DNA of 64,000 bases, taken from Eledone cirrhosa (Eukaryota). Positions 4,795 to 64,000 of this stretch are shown here, in pieces; within the stretch, counting starts at the first letter, position 1; each line of letters begins with the position of its first letter. The stretch lies in assembly GCA_964016885.1 (NCBI GenBank), contig OZ024751.1, positions 37,324,001 to 37,388,000 of the forward strand, written 5' to 3'. The notes under the pieces were generated by a model. The model was not told the origin of the DNA. It made no database searches and was given only the letters and a program-made list of their open reading frames with translations. The translations under genes and the position numbers were made by a program.

Positions 4795-6379
4795 ACAACG
4801 TTAGCAAATTTGAGAAATATAAATGTTGATTAAATCGACCGCAATATTTAAGGGATGCTAGATTTTAACGAGGTCTGGGGAGGGATGGGCTCTACCAGGT
4901 TTAAAACGGCCAGGAAACTGTGTATGGCGCCACTACGTCTCCATCAGGTGTTAAGGGAAGAAAAGAAATAATTTATCGATCCCGAAGAAAAGACACCCTG
5001 AGATGACCCCGGTTGGATTTGAACTCGGGAAGTAAAGGGCCAAAACAAGTAGCACAGTAGTCTTTTCCCCGAGTGTCCACAAATTCTATTAATCTAAATC
5101 CTCAATATGAAATTACTATTAAAACCAATTATTCTGAAATAATTATACATGATTTCCTACATCTTCACACTCGTTGGGAAACGAAGCTGGACGATTGTTT
5201 TACATTAAAATATCATGCTTAATTGGTTAGTAAGAGTGGAATATTTTCATTGTAGAAAACATCTGTTTCTAGTAAAACAATATTTCATCTGTTTTATATT
5301 AAACAAATTTCTAAAATGCAATAATCGCTCTCTTATTGTAATTTTGGCATACCAATAGTTCTACTTACATAGTTAAATAGGTGTTTTGTAGATGAATGTA
5401 TAAATATCAAGGAGGTATTTAATTGAGTATTTAGTAACTACAGACATAATTCTAGTAACTACAGACATTATTCTGAAAATGTTTAGTTGTAATTAAGCTA
5501 CAAACTGGCAGTTGCGCAAGAATGTCTAAGAACATTTCTCTCAGTATTGAATTCGGCTGTGTGCACTATGATTACATCAGGTCAAGGCTAAATTTGCCTT
5601 TCATTGCTACGTGGTCGATAAATAAAAGATTAGTCTCAGGTATTCAACAGTCAGTATCGTTTGAGCTGCAGACAAGATCACTTACTGTATTTGTTCCTAT
5701 CCTCTGTGTTTTGCGATGAAACATACCTGGCCGTGGTTGATATGCTCAGTCTGTAACCTCGTCTAACACCACCACATCGCTCTTTGAATTTAAAAAAAAA
5801 GGTCTGTGAAGTGTTGAGTGTAAAATATGATATTGTATATATTATTTCTGCATTATTTAATCAGAAGCAGACAAACATATGCATATTTTCATATAAATAC
5901 TCACGTACAAACATAGATTATACACACGTACTGACAAATGGTCAGATAGTTATATAGATACACACAGATGTATACGCACGTACATACATACGCACATATA
6001 TAGATATAGTATTAAATATACACACACATATATAGGCACTCATGTAAACACACGCACATGTAAATACATAGTCAAATATATCGATAGATTCATACATAGC
6101 TGTATAACTTGATAGATCGATGCGTACATATATATCTATCTACTTATGTACATATCTATGTATTTATGTAAGAACATGCATACATGCATACATACATATA
6201 TATCTATCTACTTATGTATGTATGTATGTAAGAACATACATACATACATACATAAGTAGAAGATATGTACCTATGTATGTACGTATATAAGTAGATAGAT
6301 ATATACGTACATACAATAAACCCTGTATACACATATATAAATATAAATATTGTAAATTAAGGAGAACTATTTATATGCT

Positions 6380-7680: not shown

Positions 7681-8340
7681 ACATATACATATATATATAT
7701 ATGTGTGTGTATGTATGTATATATATTATATATCTATGTATATTATGTATGTACGTATATATCATAATATAGTAACGGCTCTACAGGACTAGAAACGTTT
7801 AATTCAAAAGAAATCAGCAGAATAGTCGACTGTCCTTGTAAAACTGTAGTATTTATATGTTTTCTGGTGGTTGGGGAAGATGGGCATCTGTGTGTATATA
7901 TGTGCGTGTATGGTACTTGAATGTAAATGTGAAACTTATGCAAATGACTTGCTTATCAAAACAAATTTCTTAATTTCGGGGACCGTATATGTAACCCATA
8001 ATACGTTACTCCGAAAATCAAATGCGGTCAGATATGGTGAGCGCTATTGGCGTCATTATTGATGGCACATAAAGAGTTGTGTATCAATATACACTAGTGA
8101 CTTACCACTTCAATCCCTCGTCTGATTATAGGTGGTTTGTATATAGCAACCATTCTTGATCTTAACAATTAAATATACTATATAAAGTAAGCCTAAATGA
8201 ATAACTTAATTTTACTGCGGTTGACAAACTCAATAATCGGACAATAGAATCATCTCGATATCACACGAGCTAGCGTCTGGAGAGGATTCAATATTTTCTT
8301 TATAACCCATCCCTATCTATCCCGCTTGTTTAACCCACAC

Positions 8341-9963
8341 AGATGTAGACATAGACCCGAATATCTGCTCATGTGTTTCCAGAGAGATGTAGACATAGAC
8401 CCGAATATCTGCTGATGTGTTACCAGATAGATGTAGACATAGACTCGAATATCTGCTGATGTGTTTCCAGATAGATGTAGACATAGACCCGAATATCTGC
8501 TGATGTGTTTCCAGATAGATGTAGACATAGACTCGAATATCTGCTGATGTGTTGCCAGATAGATGTAGACATAGACCCGAATATCTGCTCAGGTGTTTCC
8601 AGATAGATGTAGACATAGACCCGAATATCTGCTGATGTGTTTCCAGATAGATGTAGGCATAGACCCGAATATCTGCTGATGTGTTACCAGATAGATGTAG
8701 ACATAGACCCGAATATCTGCTGATGTGTTGCCAGATAGATGTAGACATAGACTCGAATATCTGCTGATGTGTTGCCAGATAGATGTAGACATAGACTCGA
8801 ATATCTGCTGATGTGTTGCCAGATAGATGTAGACATAGACCCGAATATCTGCTCAGGTGTTTCCAGAGAGATGTAGACATAGACCCGAATATCTGCTCAG
8901 GTGTTTCCAGATAGATGTAGACATAGACCCGAATATCTGCTGATGTGTTACCAGATAGATGTAGACATAGACCCGAATATCTGCTCATGTGTTACCAGTT
9001 AGATGTAGACATAGACCCGAATATCTGCTGATGTGTTACCAGATAGATGTAGACATAGACCCGAATATCTGCTCAGGTGTTTCCAGATAGATGTAGACAT
9101 AGACCCGAATATCTGCTCAGGTGTTGCCAGATAGATGTAGACATAGACCCGAATATCTGCTCAGGTGTTTCCAGATAGATGTAGACATAGACCCGAATAT
9201 CTGCTCAGGTGTTGCCAGATAGATGTAGACATAGACCCGAATATCTGCTCAGGTGTTTCCAGATAGATGTAGACATAGACCCGAATATCTGCTCAGGTGT
9301 TTCCAGATAGATGTAGACATAGACCCGAATATCTGCTGATGTGTTACCAGATAGATGTAGACATAGACCCGAATATCTGCTCATGTGTTACCAGTTAGAT
9401 GTAGACATAGACCCGAATATCTGCTGATGTGTTACCAGATAGATGTAGACATAGACCCGAATATCTGCTCAGGTGTTTCCAGATAGATGTAGACATAGAC
9501 CCGAATATCTGCTCAGGTGTTGCCAGATAGATGTAGACATAGACCCGAATATCTGCTCAGGTGTTTCCAGATAGATGTAGACATAGACCCGAATATCTGC
9601 TCAGGTGTTGCCAGATAGATGTAGACATAGACCCGAATATCTGCTGATGTGTTGCCAGATAGATGTAGACATAGACCCGAATATCTGCTCAGGTGTTTCC
9701 AGATAGATGTAGACATAGACCCGAATATCTGCTCAGGTGTTGCCAGATAGATGTAGACATAGACCCGAATATCTGCTCAGGTGTTTCCAGATAGATGTAG
9801 ACATAGACCCGAATATCTGCTCAGGTGTTTCCAGATAGATGTAGACATAGACCCGAATATCTGCTCAGGTGTTTCCAGATAGATGTAGGCATAGACCTGA
9901 ATATCTGCTGATGTGTTGCCACACATATGTAGACATAGACCCGAATATCTGCTCAGGTGTTGC
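8341..9963. repeat. 44-bp tandem minisatellite, ~37 copies
   Basis: The unit AGATAGATGTAGACATAGACCCGAATATCTGCT(CAG/GAT)GTGTT(T/G/A)CC is repeated head-to-tail with no spacers. Confidence 0.97.
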
Positions 9964-13660: not shown

Positions 13661-13870
13661 AACGAAGGAGTTGTGGTAAGGAACCAGAAGGACCATAACG
13701 CACCAGAGTACTCAATACTTACGGTAGTAGAGTGGGAAATAGGAAATAGGAAAAAGTATGACCCCGACGGCAGAGCTCAAGCCGTTTCGACGGCTATTTC
13801 TGGACTCTCTCTCATTCAGAAATAGCCATCGAAACGGCTTGAGCTCTGCCGTCGGGGTCATACTTTTCCC
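13661..13870 (-). mobile_element. PLE 3'-end (pLTR) remnant with fold-back inversion and 3' half of a hammerhead
   Basis: The 51-bp inverted arms 13752-13802 and 13817-13867 carry GAAA-CGGC..GCCG-TC (stem III plus GUC). The element is flanked by (TA)n and is homologous to 44681-44890. Confidence 0.7.
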
Positions 13871-18318: not shown

Positions 18319-18523
18319 ATCACCAATCTGACGAGCAGATTAATACTCGAGACGGATCCGAAACTTCCGTGGGTGATGATTTTCACCAATCATCTGCAAA
18401 ATATGCGTAGAAGGTATATTACACAATACAAACTTAAACCTCATCGTTTTTCTTATATACATTGTTTGTATATTGAGTACTCATATTGGTACAATCACCA
18501 GGAATTCTCTGAATCATATACAC
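18319..18523 (+). mobile_element. PLE pLTR remnant with a degenerate hammerhead
   Basis: ATCACC..CTGACGA-GCAG..CTC-GAGA-CGGA..TCCG-T..GGTGAT (GAAA mutated to GAGA), then ATTGAGTAC at 18472 and a TA junction. Confidence 0.5.
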
Positions 18524-25721: not shown

Positions 25722-25788
25722 CTAAAAATTCTAATTTAGTCCAGAAATAGCCGTCGAAACGGCTTGAGCCGTCGGTGTCATACCTCTT

Positions 25789-25790
<2 letters not shown>
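25722..25790 (+). mobile_element. Single arm of the fold-back pLTR family (half hammerhead)
   Basis: TAGTCCAGAAATAGCCGTC-GAAA-CGGC-TTGA-GCCG-TC-GGTGTCATAC..CCT(AT)n. A further fragment lies at 26104-26146. Confidence 0.65.
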
Positions 25791-25884
<94 letters not shown>

Positions 25885-26055
25885 TAAGAATAAATAGGTT
25901 GTTTAGTTGCAGGAAGGATAAGGTCTACTTATAAAAAGTGGAAAACAAGAACGGGAGATCATTTTCCTTCATCAATTGTCTGCTGGGGGTCTTGGACATT
26001 TCAACCACCAGGAGACATCTGATGAAGGAAAATTTCCTCCCGTTCTTGCTTTCCT

Positions 26056-26104
<49 letters not shown>

Positions 26105-26743
26105 AACTAAAATTTTAGTCCAGAATTAGCCGTCGAAACGGCTTGACAATTGTTTTCTCTTCAAAGTCTGAGTTTGGGTTTATTCTTTCTTAACTTACTT
26201 CAGCCGTTGCAATCATTAATAAATCTATAAGATAATAGGTATTATATACTATAAATACTTCTCAGCTTCCTTTCAGTTTATTTCCACAATTTTCAGCTAG
26301 TGTATATCACTCTTCGTTAGAATTCCTTCCATCATAGCACTATAGCCATCTTTCAAATACCCCTTGCTCTCTATATCTCTCTTGGTATTGCTATACACAC
26401 ATTTTCCTTTCATTTTTAAATTTTATAATATTGAATAGCACGCATGAACTCCTCGGCATAATTTTAATTCTACGACTAAACTAATCACGTGAGTAACAAT
26501 CGTCTGTTCCGTAACAGTTCAGGCACGATGTTTTACTAAAATAGTTTGACGAACAGTTCGTTAGAAATGGTTCTCATCAAATTTAGTTTATGCTTATCGT
26601 ACTTGATCAATTCTAGTTGTCTCATTTTCTCGTCATTTTCCCTTTGTATAATGTACAAAGTTATTTTTTGACTGAATAAACCTTAACTATTTATGTAGTT
26701 TTTCTTTGGTTAAATGGTGATCAATCCATCGTAGATTTTCAAT

Positions 26744-39335: not shown

Positions 39336-40252
39336 GAAGAAAACAACATGCAGTTTAATGCTGGCAAATTCCAAGCCCTACAATACAAACCTGCAAACAC
39401 AAACACAAATATAGCGGAACACAGCTACACAGGACCAGGAGGGACCGATATCCCCGTGTCAAAATCGATACGAGACCTGGGCATAGACATGAGCGATGAT
39501 GCATCTTTTTCTTCACACATCATGAAGGTGGCGACAGCATGTAGACGATTCGCTGGCTGGATCTTGAGGACTTTCCTTACAAGAGATCGAGACACCATGT
39601 TGACACTGTGGAGGACTTTTGTCCTAAGCCGCCTGGACTACTGCACCCAGCTGCGGTCACCCCATAGTGTCAAACTGACCACAGAGCTTGAGGCAATCCA
39701 GCGAAGCTACACCAAGAGGATTGCCAAGATGAGGGAGACAAGCTACTGGGAGAGGCTGAAGGAACTGAACCTCTACTCCTTGGAGCGAAGACGGGAGAGA
39801 TACGCAGTGATCTACATGTGGAAAATCCTGGAGGGACTAGCACCAAACTTTGGCATTGGGAGCTGGACCAACCGTCGAACAGGACATCACTGTCTGGTGC
39901 CAAAGGTCCCGTCTTCCACATCTAGAATAAGGAGCAGGTATTGCAATAGCCTGGGATTCAAGGGCCCTGAACTCTTCAACAGTTCAACAGGCTGCCGAGG
40001 CATCTGAGAGACTTGCATGACGTGGAGGTGGATGTCTTTAAGAAACATCTCGACACCTTGTTATCCAGGATCCCGGATGAGCCCACAGCAAGACACGAGG
40101 GAAACCTAAGGGCAGCAGCAACAAACTCCCTCCTACACCAGTGGCCAACCTATACAGGCTGGAGATAAAATGTGTAGCAACAAGGGCGGTGCCCCAGCAT
40201 GGCCTCAGCCGGATGGCTGAAACAGGTAAAAGAGTAAAAGAGTAAAAGAGTA
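39336..40252 (+). mobile_element. 5'-truncated CR1/L2-group LINE (RT thumb/C-terminal region and 3' UTR)
   Basis: ORF 39348-40007 has MQFNAGK, RDLGI, SRLDYC and YWERLKELNLYSLERRRER. An 8-bp duplication TTCAACAG (39975-39990) frameshifts the end. The 3' hairpin TCAGCC-GGAT-GGCTGA is followed by a (GTAAAAGA)3 tail. Confidence 0.9.
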
Positions 40253-40678: not shown

Positions 40679-41174
40679 AATATATATATATATAAATATA
40701 TATATATAAATGTATATATATAAATGTATATATATATATATATATAAATGTATATATATATATATATATAAATGTATATATATATATAAATATTTATATA
40801 TATATAAATATTTATATATATATAAATATTTATATATAAATATATATATATAAATGTATATATATATATATAAATGTATATATATATGTATAAATATATA
40901 TATATATATATAGTTTTGCGAGGTTTTTTATATGAAATCGTGTGTCGAAACAGATATTGTTATATTTGGGGAGGGTCATATTTGCGTAATATTGCCAGAA
41001 TTAATAACAGAACACACTCACTGTTTGGTTGGTTTTCGCTTCTCGCTGTCTTTTATATATATATATCTGCGATCTAGCTTACTCGGTCCTCAATGTTGCC
41101 ATTGACTGACCGGCGGTCAAAAATAATACAGATACAATATAGACAAACACATATATATATAGTTTACATAAATC

Positions 41175-41202
41175 TTTCGTTGCACATCTGCAACATCGTC
41201 AG
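41175..41202 (-). ncRNA. Hammerhead-like core in the PLE 3' UTR (second copy 44380-44407, +)
   Basis: CTGACGA-T-GTTGCA-GATG-TGCAAC-GAAA. Stems I and III could not be closed convincingly by eye. Confidence 0.5.
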
Positions 41203-41479
41203 TGGTGTTATATTCATTGTTCCTCCTGTTGTGTTGTATGTCTACGCCATTTTTTTTGTTCAGTCTGTCTATATATTTATTTATTTATTTGCTTGTTTGT
41301 TTATCTTATTTTATTTTGTCTTCTTTGCGCATGCGTTTGCGTGTGTGTATAGTGTTATGTGTGATGTGTGATGTGTGACTAGTGTGTATAGTGTTGTCTG
41401 CTGGGTGACTAGTGTGTGTTTATGTGCTTGTGTATGTATTTATTTATCTTATTTTATTTAATTTAATTTACTTATTTAT

Positions 41480-57609: not shown

Positions 57610-57803
57610 GTATATATAGATAAATCTACCAAGAGTTTACGGTAGTGTCCAATCCGTATGAAGAACTCAATGTATTCCGGATATCATGGAAAGAAGAGAT
57701 GTAATGAAAATCCAATTTCGGTGAAAGATAAACGGTATACAGAGTCAAGATAAAATATTAAACAAATAATGAACAAACAATTCCTTATATTAAACAAAAA
57801 AAG

Positions 57804-57958
57804 TTCACCATTTAACGATCGTTTCTAGGGTATATATGTGCTATAATTGGTATGCATATTTAACAGATCTATGTACAAAATTATACAAAATTATACAAAT
57901 TATCAAGATTAAATATACATACCTAACTCATATATACGCCGTCTTCAGAAATAATGAA
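57804..57958 (-). ncRNA. Type I hammerhead ribozyme with an extended stem II
   Basis: Minus strand: TTCATTATTT-CTGAAGA-[116 nt; GGCGTATATATG/CATATATACCCT]-GAAA-C-GATC-G-TT-AAATGGTGAA. Stem I is 10 bp (2 G.U) and stem III is palindromic (AACGATCGTT). Confidence 0.78.
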
Positions 57959-58728
57959 GTATATTTATTGATAATAACAACAATTCAAAATATCAGTTCA
58001 AAATTGACCAATGAAAACACAAAGGGTTAAAAAGCAGTTTGGTGTGTGTATATACATGTAAAACCCTACACACATTTTACAAAAATGTGTGTATAATATG
58101 TATGTGCATACTAAAAAGATGGATGCAAATAAAAAATTTCAAGGTTAATATCTCTGTAAGCTTAATGCGCTGATAAGATACGCAATGATACTTATGTAGT
58201 CAAGCATATAAATATATTTTTTTCATACTCACACATATCAGTATAATCACACATACATGTGCGTATATATATAAATATACACATAACCACAAACACACAA
58301 ACACACACACACCCCCCACTCACATTTATATATGTGGATATAAAATCATAAGCAAATAGAAATTAAGTCACTCACATAAACACACTGGTACACACATTTC
58401 AAGATCAAGATACAGAAATTAGGTGGGAGGGGGGGGGGAGGGGTCAGTATTAGGTTGTCAGACCAGACAGCCTAATATAAATGTATCTATAAATTATGAA
58501 AAATAAAAAAATAAAAACAATAAAATATATTACATATAATATAATGTACATACGCATACAGATATACATACACATACATACATGTACGCGCACATAGAGA
58601 TATCTACACATACATACATACACACATACCTATACTGTCATACACACACATACATTTACACGAACATACACATACACATATAAAAAGATAAAAATACGGA
58701 CACACACACGCGCAACACATACACACAT

Positions 58729-58779
<51 letters not shown>

Positions 58780-58892
58780 TATACACACACACACACATAG
58801 ACTCATATATATATACAAACACATACATATACTTATACATAAACATATATATCCCACACTCATACCACCATGAAAACACATACAAACATCCA

Positions 58893-58943
<51 letters not shown>

Positions 58944-59035
58944 ATACACACACGTACACATATATGCACATATACATACATATATACACACATACACATA
59001 TATATATATACACACACACATAAAATACAGACATG

Positions 59036-59066
<31 letters not shown>

Positions 59067-59162
59067 TTCATTACCCTTATATATACACATAGTATATATA
59101 CATACACAACCTCACTTATACACATATACACATAAGTTATATTACAATAATAATAAAGAATA

Positions 59163-59193
<31 letters not shown>

Positions 59194-59332
59194 TATACAC
59201 ACATATACACATATACATACATACACATACATATACATACATACATACACATACATACATACACCTAAATATAAACATATATAAATACACACATACGAAT
59301 AAAGACATATATTCACACATAGACACCTATAT

Positions 59333-59374
<42 letters not shown>

Positions 59375-60966
59375 ATATACACACACATACACATACATAC
59401 ACATATATATATATATACACATATATACACACGCACACACATACAGACACACATACACACTCACATATATATATATATATATATATATATGTGTATGTGA
59501 GTGTGCGCAAATACATACATATATATACACGCACACATACAAACACACACAAACACATACATATGCATACATGCACACACACACACATATATCACATAGA
59601 TACGAAGATAAACATATAAATAGAGAGACATACAAATATATACAGAACCCATATACACATACATGCAAACACGCATATACATATATACATATATACACAC
59701 ATATATATTCCTATATACAAGCATACACATACACACACATATATACATATACCTACACATATATATACCACACATTCACATACACGTACATATATAATAC
59801 ATATATATACATACATATACATACATATGTATGTACAATCATATATACACACTCAATCTTACATTCATATTTACATGCTCATATATGTATTTTTATATCT
59901 AGAAATAAATACCAAAAAAACTATATAGACACCCATCTACCCATATATTCATACATATACACTTACAAAAACAGATGATAATAGTATGGGGGAAAGGGGG
60001 GGGTTTGGAGAAGGGGATCAAAGTAAATATATGTTTCAAGAAACCTATAATATTTTCCATATCTTAATTCAATGTATGTTCTTACATATTTTCAATGCTA
60101 GGAAATACGAAATCTATGCATCACAAAATAAAAAAGTATACCATTAATCATATGTCAACTAAACCAAAGATAGTCAACATATTGATTTCCAAGGTGTAAA
60201 TTAGTTAGGTTTATAATATTTGAAGCAGAATTATGAAGTCAAACAGTAGTAGATTATTAATTACATTATAACTAAATTAAAGTTAATAATAGGGAAAAGA
60301 AACCCAAATAAAAATAAAATAAAGTATTACATCGGTAGTAGCATATAAATTATATGTTAACTAAGTTAAAAATTATATATTTATTTCAATAGTATATGTT
60401 AATTAGTATATGTTAATTAGGTATACAATACATAAAGCAGATATTGTATTTCATCAATAGCATAATATAATTATATGCAAATAAAAATCAAAATTAATAC
60501 GCATACACATACATATACATACACATACACATACATATACATATACATACACATATATATATATATATATACATATATATACACACATACATACATATAT
60601 AGTCACATAAATATACATACAGATACACATACAATACACACATATATACATATACATATAGATATACATATCTTTTTCAAAAAATTTGCACAGAATATAT
60701 TAACTAGGTATATATCCAAAAACACCTCCCATTCTATGATTACATGAAATTCTGCAATTCGTCTGTACAAGGATACTAATTTTAAGCAAATTAAAATTAA
60801 AATTAAAGTTTTAGGTTGATTAAAGCTAAAACCAAATAATAAATATATTTCCAAAATGTATATTAATTAGGTCAATAATACTAAAAATTCTTTCTCCGTC
60901 ATAGGATACATGATATTATTTTGTTATATTTTATCTGTAAAAGAATTATAATAAAAAAAATTTATA

Positions 60967-61011
<45 letters not shown>

Positions 61012-61229
61012 TAATAAAAGGTTAAACTAAATTAAAAAATTATAATAAAAGGTTAAAATAAGTTAAAATTAATCTATAAATTAAATTACTGAATATATAT
61101 TAGTAATATTTAAAGGTTTTTCAAAATTAATGATTACATAATATTTTCTCATCTGTAATAAAATATTAATTAAATTAAATTTATAGGTTAACTAACATTT
61201 AAATTAAATTAAATTCTAGAATAATGTTA

Positions 61230-63671
61230 TTAATTAGGTTTATAATATTTAAATGTTTTTTTTAGTTTATGATTACACGATATAATTAATTCCTGTCTTT
61301 TATTTAATAAGATATCCCTAGACTTCATTATTTCAAATAGTTCTTGGGAACATAATCTACATTCCTTTCTATTATTTTGATAAGGGGTGGCTCTTTTGAG
61401 CACACTCCAGGTCAAATCATATTTTATATTTTTATTTTTATAACTATTGATTTTTTCTGCTAGAGATGTTGTATTAGCCAGTGCGGCATTTTTAAAGCTA
61501 TGTTTGTGGGTATTATACCTTGTCTTAAAATTGTTAGAGGTAGCTCCTATATATGAGCAAATAGAATCTTTAGTTTTAACATTACATTTATAGACTATGT
61601 TGTTAACAAGACAATTCCCTTTTAATGGGCAGTTTGTTTTGTTTCTACAGTTACATCCTTTCGTTAATTCTGTATTTGAGGAGATATTATTGTTAATTTG
61701 ATGTACTGGTGGTATACTTATAGTTTTCTTACATTTATATGCATTATATGCACTTATATTTTGTTTTATGTTATTTGTTGTAGAATATGAGAATTTAACT
61801 GTAGACCTATTTAAGATTTGATGGTATTTGTGGTTTGGCGGGAAGTTTTTCTCAAGGATATAAAAAAATTTTTTAGCAATATTATCCTTAACTTGTAAAT
61901 TAAAAGGAGCATTATACCAAGTAACTCGTCTATTACGGTTTCTATGTTGTTTATTATTTTTATTATTTTTATATGTTGTATCATGATTTTTACTAGGAGG
62001 AATAATGTTAATGATCTCACCACAACTATTTTTAGTTATATTTGTAGATTTAGGTGTTTTATCTTTTTTATTAGGAGTTTTATTATTAATATTTATTATA
62101 GTCTTATGATGAGTAGTTTTTTGAGGGTTACTATACTTTATATTAGAAGATTTAGTATTTTGGGGTATACTGTGGGTGGCATTTAGGTGTGTACCTTTCA
62201 TTTGGTGTTTGTTGGTAATATTATGCTGTATGTTTTCAGTATTTTTAGTAGAAGTTATATACTCTAATCTATTTTTGTGGCCACTTCTATCTAGAGCTTC
62301 ATTATAAAAGGTCGCATTTTTATCAAATACATCTTGGTTAGAAGAAAGGTTAGAAATTCTAAGTGATATATTATATGCAAGGTTTTTAAGGATAGATTTA
62401 GGGTGATTAGATTGTGAGTGTATGTAATGTAAGTTTTGGTTAGGTTTATGGTAAGGTTGGTATATACCCGTAGCTAAATCTAAAGTTATATCTAGGAAAT
62501 TTACTACTTTACTTGTTTTTTCAAAAGTAATATTAAGATTATAATAGTCCTTAAGGAAAGTTCTAATATGCTTTTTGTTTTTTTCGATTTCTGAAAGGCT
62601 AAGGTTGTTAGAAAGAAGAAGACAGTCATCACGATATAAACCACCTTTGAGGTGGGGAAAAGAGGCATTTATGTTGAAAAGGAGAAAGAGGCCCACAAGA
62701 TCAGTAATTTGGGCAGAATCGCTTGAACCCATAGTAATATCAAAAAGATTACTATAAGTGTTTCTGGTCCAGTATTCATTCTGAAATTCAATAAGTGTTT
62801 GTCTAGCGTGTGTAATAATGTTAATGTCATCCGAAGTTAAATTAGATCTATTTTTAGCAAATATTAATGCTTTGTTCAGGAGTATGGGTGATATAGAAGA
62901 ATAATAGTTATCTATATCAAACTGTAGGAAAGAAGCAGAAGATTTACACCTAATATTTTTAAACCAATTAATTACCTGGGAGGTGTTTTCCCAGAGTGGT
63001 AAAATAACGTATTTTCTTATTTGTGGGATGACTCTATCTAAAATTTTTTTGCTAATTATTCCAATATCTGATTTGGAGGGACATATAAGTCTAATAGAAG
63101 GATTAGAGTTAAAGTTAGATTTGTGATCTTTCAGGTTGAAGTGTGGACTTCTCAATGCCAAAGGTTCAGTTCTATCTTCAATATTTAGTTTTTTTACTAT
63201 GTTGTGTGTTTTGTTGTTGATGTTGGTGAGTGACGCATTATTAGATTTTTTATAACTTTTTCTGAGTTCTTTATATATGAACTCATTATAATGTTCAATA
63301 TCCATATGATACAAGTTACCAGTTTTGTCCGAGTGGACATGGATTTTTTTAGACTTTTTTAGGTCCAATAGGGTAGAATCAAGGTCCTTTTGAAAGACGG
63401 ATTTATACTTTTTAAATTTGAGGTGTTTAATTAAATTAAAAAGGTCTTTCTCGAAGTCTTCAAGTAAAAAGTTGTGTGGTGGATTCTTGTAAGTGTTGAA
63501 ATCATACATATATTTCCGATCTGCTTGTTTAGATTTTCTATCAAAGTGGTAGGCTCTCCATCTAACCCTTCTGATAAAATTATTAGTTTTCTGAATCATA
63601 AGGAGTAAGAAGTCGTCCTTAGAAGGTATTGGTATGTTTTTTAAGGAGGTTCCTAAATATTGTTTTTCCAT
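61230..63671 (-). CDS. Naiad-type PLE polyprotein: RT + GIY-YIG endonuclease (813 aa from the first ATG)
   Basis: N-terminal SLKNIPIPS..FIRRVRWRA. RT motifs DKTGN, KDHK, RLICP, FDIDNYYSSI, TMGS, GLYRDD and NFLD. The C-terminal part has WYNAPF, CNC..CPLKGNCL..IVY..YIG, CRLC..E and LNKRQEL..CNH. The stop is TAA. Confidence 0.93.
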   Translation of the reverse strand: MEKQYLGTSLKNIPIPSKDDFLLLMIQKTNNFIRRVRWRAYHFDRKSKQADRKYMYDFNTYKNPPHNFLLEDFEKDLFNLIKHLKFKKYKSVFQKDLDSTLLDLKKSKKIHVHSDKTGNLYHMDIEHYNEFIYKELRKSYKKSNNASLTNINNKTHNIVKKLNIEDRTEPLALRSPHFNLKDHKSNFNSNPSIRLICPSKSDIGIISKKILDRVIPQIRKYVILPLWENTSQVINWFKNIRCKSSASFLQFDIDNYYSSISPILLNKALIFAKNRSNLTSDDINIITHARQTLIEFQNEYWTRNTYSNLFDITMGSSDSAQITDLVGLFLLFNINASFPHLKGGLYRDDCLLLSNNLSLSEIEKNKKHIRTFLKDYYNLNITFEKTSKVVNFLDITLDLATGIYQPYHKPNQNLHYIHSQSNHPKSILKNLAYNISLRISNLSSNQDVFDKNATFYNEALDRSGHKNRLEYITSTKNTENIQHNITNKHQMKGTHLNATHSIPQNTKSSNIKYSNPQKTTHHKTIININNKTPNKKDKTPKSTNITKNSCGEIINIIPPSKNHDTTYKNNKNNKQHRNRNRRVTWYNAPFNLQVKDNIAKKFFYILEKNFPPNHKYHQILNRSTVKFSYSTTNNIKQNISAYNAYKCKKTISIPPVHQINNNISSNTELTKGCNCRNKTNCPLKGNCLVNNIVYKCNVKTKDSICSYIGATSNNFKTRYNTHKHSFKNAALANTTSLAEKINSYKNKNIKYDLTWSVLKRATPYQNNRKECRLCSQELFEIMKSRDILLNKRQELIISCNHKLKKTFKYYKPN

Positions 63672-63827
63672 TGTGATATGGATGATGGACAATTGAAAGA
63701 GCTCAACTAAATGTATATGGGTTTACAAAATCATACATATATATATGTATATACATAAATATAAAATTAATACACACATACAGTACAAAAATACGAATAT
63801 TTCCGTGAAAATAGGAGCAAAATTATG

Positions 63828-64000
63828 TAGATAAATCTACCAAGAGTTTACGGTAGTGTCCAATCCGTATGAAGAACTCAATGTATTCCGGATATCATGG
63901 AAAGAAGAGATGTAATGAAAATCCAATTTCGGTGAAAGATAAACGGTATACAGAGTCAAGATAAAATATTAAACAAATAATGAACAAACAATTCCTTATA
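63828..64000 (-). repeat. Upstream pseudo-LTR copy of the Naiad-type PLE (truncated by the window edge)
   Basis: Direct repeat of 57617-57789, identical by eye. Confidence 0.92.

Follow-up and report, generated by a model that had tools for sequence, protein, structure and literature searches.

A young Hydra-clade Penelope-like element with a long-armed hammerhead and a possible circular RNA template

PMC8557442 calls it open how Penelope-like elements (PLEs) come by tandem pseudo-long terminal repeats (pseudo-LTRs) together with inverted arms and a tail on one side only, and also what purpose their hammerhead ribozymes have; in vitro work on one Poseidon element has given part of the answer. 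The element treated here lies at the end of a 64,000-nucleotide stretch of the Eledone cirrhosa genome, G000:C11:37324001-37388000 (the window, whose own positions are used except where a contig coordinate is given), and was searched for in the whole 3.0-Gb animal genome. With the Hydra-clade elements Hydra-1_Obim, Hydra-1_Ajap and Hydra-1_Crog (PMC8557442) it shares a sole open reading frame (ORF), a C-terminal GIY-YIG endonuclease, the motifs KNIP, RW[KR], DKT, CxCX5C and CxxC/CxH, and the lack of CCHH; Hydra elements also have a type I hammerhead close to the 3' end (in several members with a cugaaga core and U at the cut), (TA)n targets and tandem or inverted arms, as does this one. PAc (Poseidon, Anolis carolinensis; PMC11167929) belongs to another clade and is alike in its AT-rich targets, the two internal starts that define its tail, the extension of both strands and the hammerheads left uncut in copies; it differs from our element, whose starts are separated by 133 nt and lie upstream of the ORF, and whose hammerhead is in the 3' untranslated region (UTR). 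Metazoan non-LTR retrozymes (PMC7229834; bioRxiv 10.64898/2026.07.22.740005) likewise have a type I hammerhead in each repeat unit and form monomeric RNA circles by cleavage and probable joining by tRNA ligase, but they are non-coding and 170-400 nt long, whereas the unit here is coding, 6.2 kb in length, and its circle is putative. The best overall explanation, which we favour with some reserve, is that of a young Hydra element whose insertions are each copied from one RNA, short stubs coming from capped linear transcripts and long arms from circles.

The full unit, on the minus strand like all of its parts, spans 57617..63827 (6,211 bp by the repeat spacing, with similar unit lengths at other genomic loci), compared with about 2.1-2.7 kb for complete Hydra consensi and less than 3 kb as the usual, descriptive size (PMC8557442). 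It is made up of a 5' UTR of 156 nt (63672..63827), an ORF of 813 aa without internal stop (61230..63671) and a 3' UTR of 3,613 bp (57617..61229) that includes the hammerhead and the tail. Rich in (TA)n and (TG)n microsatellites, the 3' UTR is part of the element in other copies as well; it departs from the described Hydra elements (PMC8557442), and through it the element brings 3.6 kb of microsatellite-rich DNA into new sites. The tail (57617..57749) is 133 nt long here, 133-137 nt in the family, against the 30-40 nt described for PLEs, and the two halves of the hammerhead core stand 116 nt apart against roughly 12-25 nt in the hammerheads of File S2 of PMC8557442. By-eye comparison also sets the family apart from Hydra-1_Obim.

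A strand-neutral (TA)n target tract (57340..57616) precedes the unit, and at 63828..64000 the window holds the visible end of an upstream partial unit, which matches the sequence from 57617 at 173/173 bases with a spacing of 6,211 and extends past the window to G000:C11:37392345. Both the unit length and the identical terminal repeat given in the original prediction are real, but the repeat does not stop at 173 bp. What the window shows of it is the end of a second unit of 4,533 bp, truncated within the ORF and adjoined by a 5.7-kb inverted arm (37392349-37398018) that has the short 3' end and is without the first 84 codons. The whole insertion, about 16.4 kb and tandem plus inverted, has both outer ends in (TA)n and the Penelope-type layout of a partial tandem, an inverted 5'-truncated arm and a tail at one end; dozens of other loci across the genome show a tandem and inverted layout of this kind, again with fixed ends.

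Proposed RNA templates of the insertions

Copies of the element end at either of two fixed positions, 57750 (the short end) or 57617 (the long end, often with CATA added), and both ends are kept in a divergent subfamily, in which a search for tandem junctions gave four matches, none of them a junction. Where both outer ends of an inverted insertion are visible, one is long and the other short in 28/29 cases (the exception has two short ends, and two more were uninformative), as they are in 16/16 of a second sample that overlaps the first, with 11 uninformative. Among 29,546 sites covered by two arms of the same insertion, the two disagree at 5 (locus L112, which has an older neighbour inside, was left out), against a difference of 0.63% between insertions in a wider set of 79. 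Similarly, hammerhead haplotypes are identical in 19/19 and 35/36 arm pairs, where random insertions would give 0.12; the second count leaves out 3/100 copies whose length differed, and its discordant pair consists of two neighbouring insertions with different ORF variants. Such identity suggests that each insertion was very probably copied from one RNA molecule. In PAc in vitro, the tail lies between two internal start sites (PMC11167929), and by analogy one RNA would here be copied from a pair of internal start sites that lie 133-137 nt from each other, one for each DNA strand. The protein is likely to nick (TA)n tracts; 22/22 outer ends run into (TA)n, the remaining 8/30 loci being internal tandem junctions.

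Past the long end, at 13 nt, the 5' UTR is predicted to fold a UUCG-capped hairpin; of the hairpins just past the two 3' ends, that after the long end is clear and that after the short one weak (-1.5 kcal/mol). In the tail, a segment and a CTACC/GGTAG hairpin just before the long end (57617-57700; loci L134-L153) are kept between subfamilies, and could possibly be a promoter or a protein-binding element.

The 5' ends of the arms are of particular interest. In a set of 100 arms taken by their position along contig C1, the 5' ends of 30 fall at unit positions 5861-5885, those of 13 in the hammerhead hairpin and that of 1 near the ribozyme cut, while 10 lie further up and 46 outside the span that was tested; the mode corresponds to window position 57955 (-), the A of TCATT, and 9/20 arms of the divergent subfamily stop likewise. 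TCATT resembles the metazoan initiator. This position, where the stub arms stop, is probably the transcription start, and its copy serving the ORF in the window would lie at window-equivalent 64166, 495 nt before the ATG. Penelope, too, has an internal promoter with an initiator (PMC2377424).

The base before the start-site A is G 620 times and A or T 2,276 times, and a G one base further in occurs only 44 times. Reverse transcription can copy a cap as an extra G. In 30 junctions with this G, 24 are unexplained by the partner arm, five have a G in the partner too, and four carry slip-repeats of the terminal bases, which would be expected if the enzyme slips at the end of a template that includes the G. 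At the inverted junctions of L281, L286, L295 and L305 we observed short tandem repeats of the terminal 13 bases, resembling telomerase-type slippage where a template ends. No published account of a start-site G in PLE copies was found in a search that left subscription papers, bioRxiv supplements and part of the supplement of PMC8557442 aside, and neither the pile-up with G nor two template classes were found in the parts of the PAc account consulted (PMC11167929).

The arms that bear the ORF behave differently, as 0/66 stop at the start site and 41/66 run past 1.12 units. Because stubs end at the start site while none of these ORF-bearing arms does, two classes of template are suggested. The partners of start-site arms, moreover, are rarely longer (3/28, with 1 unassigned, against 11/17, with 6 unassigned; p 5e-4). 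The ribozyme cut is not a main stop site in either set (1/100 and 3/66 arms). We propose that short stubs are run-off products of a capped linear transcript that starts at the hammerhead, the cap being copied as the G at stub ends, and that cleavage at both hammerheads, followed by ligation, would yield a unit-length circle; long tandem arms such as those at the window locus would then be copied from this endless template. By analogy with the small retrozymes, we give the unit-length circle as template of the long arms about an even chance. The full proposal, an autonomous coding retrotransposon whose long-armed hammerhead produces the 6.2-kb RNA circle through which it replicates, with two copies of the enzyme starting 133 nt apart on one RNA and both template classes recorded in the insertions, is more tentative and falls slightly below that. 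If it were true, circular-RNA replication would account at once for what the ribozyme does, for the pseudo-LTRs and for the tail on one side.

Several observations weigh against this proposal. With its hammerhead mutated, PAc still inserts normally in vitro, and none of its RNA-seq reads terminates at the cut (PMC11167929). Of stem I, a transcript that starts at 57955 would retain no more than 7 bp, and its 5' hammerhead is predicted to be off, so that cleavage at two hammerheads becomes harder; at the base of stem II a C faces UA in place of the canonical closing pair, and GUU serves as the triplet. The start site, the cleavage and the circle are predictions from DNA. G makes up 21% of the non-C bases before the stop site (620/2,896), a share no higher than base composition would give; the case for a start-site G rests on its position specificity, and 6/30 G junctions are explicable by the partner arm. 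As to sampling, some partner calls in the partner-length test are (TA)n mis-hits, the arm counts are partly non-independent (paired arms) and come mostly from contig C1, and the ORF-anchored loci were picked by closeness to the window copy.

The long arms might instead derive from linear multi-unit or read-through RNA of tandem donors, the hammerhead remaining uncut and dispensable, as proposed for PAc. We consider this unlikely, even though unprocessed RNA is the main PAc substrate in vitro (PMC11167929), tandems of at least two full units exist and every arm has an intact hammerhead: ORF-bearing arms copied from such an RNA would be expected to end at the start, which 0/66 do, and tandems would shorten with each generation and their units drift, yet the arms of one insertion show only the 5 conflicts noted above. 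In a second alternative, one capped linear RNA serves for all arms, the short run-off complementary DNA switching to the repeated 3' end of that RNA, as in retroviral strong-stop transfer, while the hammerhead would do no more than trim the 3' end. Such an RNA would be terminally redundant, stubs would end at the start site, the one-template identity would follow, and the 5' hammerhead is predicted to be off and the 3' one on. However, arms that come to the 5' end a second time should stop there about as frequently as those that come to it first, of which 30/86 do, and 0/47 do so (p 4e-7), and the partners of start-site arms are rarely long; we therefore hold the strand jump to be quite improbable. 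The circle-derived origin of the long arms, to which we return as the preferred reading, and the linear multimer make directly testable predictions at exact positions. The family offers a test bed for the Penelope mechanism: its enzyme is intact, its near-identical products number in the thousands, and the start, the cut and the two priming sites are each predicted to an exact position.

The long-armed hammerhead

The hammerhead (57958-57804, on the minus strand, which is the element's sense strand), identified by folding and by genome matches, is of type I, with a 10-bp stem I, a CUGAAGA core half (57948-57942) and a second half of the form GAA-ACGAUCGU-U, in which GAAA occupies 57825-57822; stem III is palindromic and of 3 bp, and the predicted cut falls between 57814 and 57813. 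This is the only hammerhead found in the unit, and it bears out the statement of the original prediction that a complete one is present if that statement, which gave no coordinates, refers to this one. What sets it apart is stem II, extended into a hairpin of 116 nt between the core halves (57826..57941, supported by folding and covariation), which folds as a single long hairpin with z -4.2 (0/200 shuffles). A pattern of both core halves 100-128 nt apart gave 8,599 genome matches and a control gave 0. Across three subfamilies, 91% of alignment cells pair, 10/56 pairs change on both sides, and the covariation score was reached by 0/500 shuffles; the set comprised 21 sequences chosen from 49 distinct ones with the window copy as reference structure, and kinship can inflate the score. 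In the divergent subfamily (253 matches) the basal helix has been swapped from TA-rich to GC-rich on both strands. As judged from this covariation, the long stem II is kept through compensatory changes across the three subfamilies.

Rfam, run on 57590-58520, missed the hammerhead, and over the whole window its 150 best of 338 matches held microRNA noise and no hammerhead; our own descriptor, with a 70-nt limit, missed it as well. Thousands of this genome's hammerheads, as the long arm shows, escape standard ribozyme searches. A separate short-armed subfamily was considered and rejected, since it has one match, likely a deletion, against the 8,599 long-armed ones. No published account of a long-armed Hydra hammerhead was found in a search that left aside subscription papers, bioRxiv supplements and part of the supplement of PMC8557442.

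Variants in the hammerhead arm among young copies (57808-57931) are mostly A/G on the sense strand, some recurring on different backgrounds. A-to-G changes affect 8/39 paired adenines of the hairpin against 1/108 UTR adenines (p 1e-4), but an independent sample gave 5/36 against 2/44. These mixed counts are at most suggestive of ADAR editing of the hairpin, written back into DNA by reverse transcription. We regard this as possible and rather doubtful: selection for pairing also favours A-to-G, and a local four-gamete test was not clean (8/21 vs 12/66).

Clade, age and copies

By its motifs, its domain order and a by-eye match to the supplement of PMC8557442, the element almost certainly belongs to the Hydra clade, which that source characterizes by a C-terminal endonuclease, RWK, DKT, CxCX5C and CxxC/CxH, the lack of CCHH, the presence of a hammerhead and insertion into (TA)n. 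The uninterrupted 813-aa reading frame for a reverse transcriptase (RT) and GIY-YIG endonuclease (61230-63671, -) is as originally described, with KNIPIPS, CNCRNKTNC (aa 673), CRLC (aa 771) and CNH (aa 799) all present; further motifs are RWR (aa 37, counted as a conservative variant of the Hydra RWK), DKT (aa 115), YRDD (aa 346-349) and IVY...YIG (aa 692-709). The CxCX5C linker and the endonuclease (IVY...YIG, R718, H722 and E777, with CxxC and CxH) are encoded at 61269..61655 (-). RW[KR] occurs in 68/117 homologues and DK[TS] in 100/117; in an alignment of 42 rows, C673, C675 and C681 of the linker are invariant (42/42), C771, C774 and E777 are kept in 41 and C799 and H801 in 40. The CCHH endonuclease motif was not found in these rows (C696 in 4/42, C705 unconserved, no downstream histidine pair). 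A model of the whole protein has a mean predicted local distance difference test score (pLDDT) of 85.7, with a low-confidence linker at aa 482-572; its eight top Foldseek matches are TERT structures (best E 4.7e-9), and the model of aa 654-813 resembles the I-TevI catalytic domain 1ln0 (Z 8.9, root-mean-square deviation 2.3, 89 residues aligned). Pfam and PDB sequence searches returned nothing useful for the protein.

The family is very young and under purifying selection. The 40 best of 4,186 DNA candidates yielded 41 full-length ORF matches with 99-100% identity, and the RT regions scored, 93 of 48,402 protein candidates, are all 98-100% identical (93/93) and free of stops in 92/93. In the 20 closest copies all ORFs are open and differ by a mean of 4.2 bases, and 23/29 distinct variants are synonymous (ratio of nonsynonymous to synonymous polymorphism, pN/pS, 0.06; p 7e-12). 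A 35-base pattern of the 3' end has 2,824 genome matches. Divergence in the RT regions scored and over the 79 insertions is low, and the description of an intact, young PLE with a partial-tandem structure and its own hammerhead holds on copy identity, layout and ribozyme core. The further claim of a master element does not: the window copy is one among dozens that are intact, its hammerhead haplotype is rare and one of its ORF bases is private, and therefore nothing marks it as master. Nor did we find support for its mobilizing the window's small remnants: searches by blastn and tblastn, and local alignment of eight hammerhead-like spots, revealed no other part of the 64-kb window that is homologous to it. 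Reads and contigs of four runs contain related sequence, mostly 90-99% alike, with the insertion site within long (TA)n tracts. Young Penelope-like families are also annotated among the repeats of an octopus genome, without clade names (PMC13282606).

That the terminal repeat is an assembly duplication is very improbable despite its visible 173 identical bases, as microsatellites and poly(A) tracts are not of equal length in the tandem units (15 gap positions over 4,533 bp) and the tandem and inverted layout with fixed ends recurs elsewhere. The Naiad label first attached to the element is refuted by domain order: Naiads have an N-terminal endonuclease, CxC, DKA, CCHH, IFD and no canonical hammerhead (PMC8557442), and although a preference for (TA)n, partial tandems and inverted arms are common to them and to this element, the protein is opposite to them in endonuclease position, DKT, the lack of CCHH and the hammerhead, and KNIP opens three Hydra proteins in the supplement and occurs only internally in one Naiad. 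As classification alone, this is an ordinary new Hydra family, new in its size, its ribozyme arm and its tail.

In the 5' UTR there is a predicted 75-nt GT-AG intron (63781-63707, -), and arm L010 starts precisely at its acceptor. The leader of Drosophila Penelope holds a 75-bp intron (PMC2377424).

Other features of the window

A second intact Penelope-like element occupies 41480-43936 (-), with flanks reaching over 40954-44628 and inverted arms. Its protein of 818 aa has DKSG, YVDD, a CX2-5CxxC linker and a CCHH-type endonuclease and is barely similar to the Hydra protein; its motifs point to another, Neptune/Nematis-like clade. Hammerhead-like cores accompany it at 41202 (-) and 44380 (+), and isolated ones occur at 18328 (+), 21322 (+), 29999 (-), 38520 (-), 54466 (+) and 56665 (+). 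None of the isolated cores aligns to the Hydra element clearly better than shuffles do, and they are probably the ends of other elements. A family of fold-back palindromes (13746-13866, 25735-26146 and 44759-44890) is likewise not homologous to the Hydra element. At 8317-9950 lies a 44-bp tandem minisatellite whose minus strand has open frames, and an ORF of 219 aa (39348-40007, +) resembles the C-terminal part of a CR1/L2-type long interspersed nuclear element (LINE) protein.

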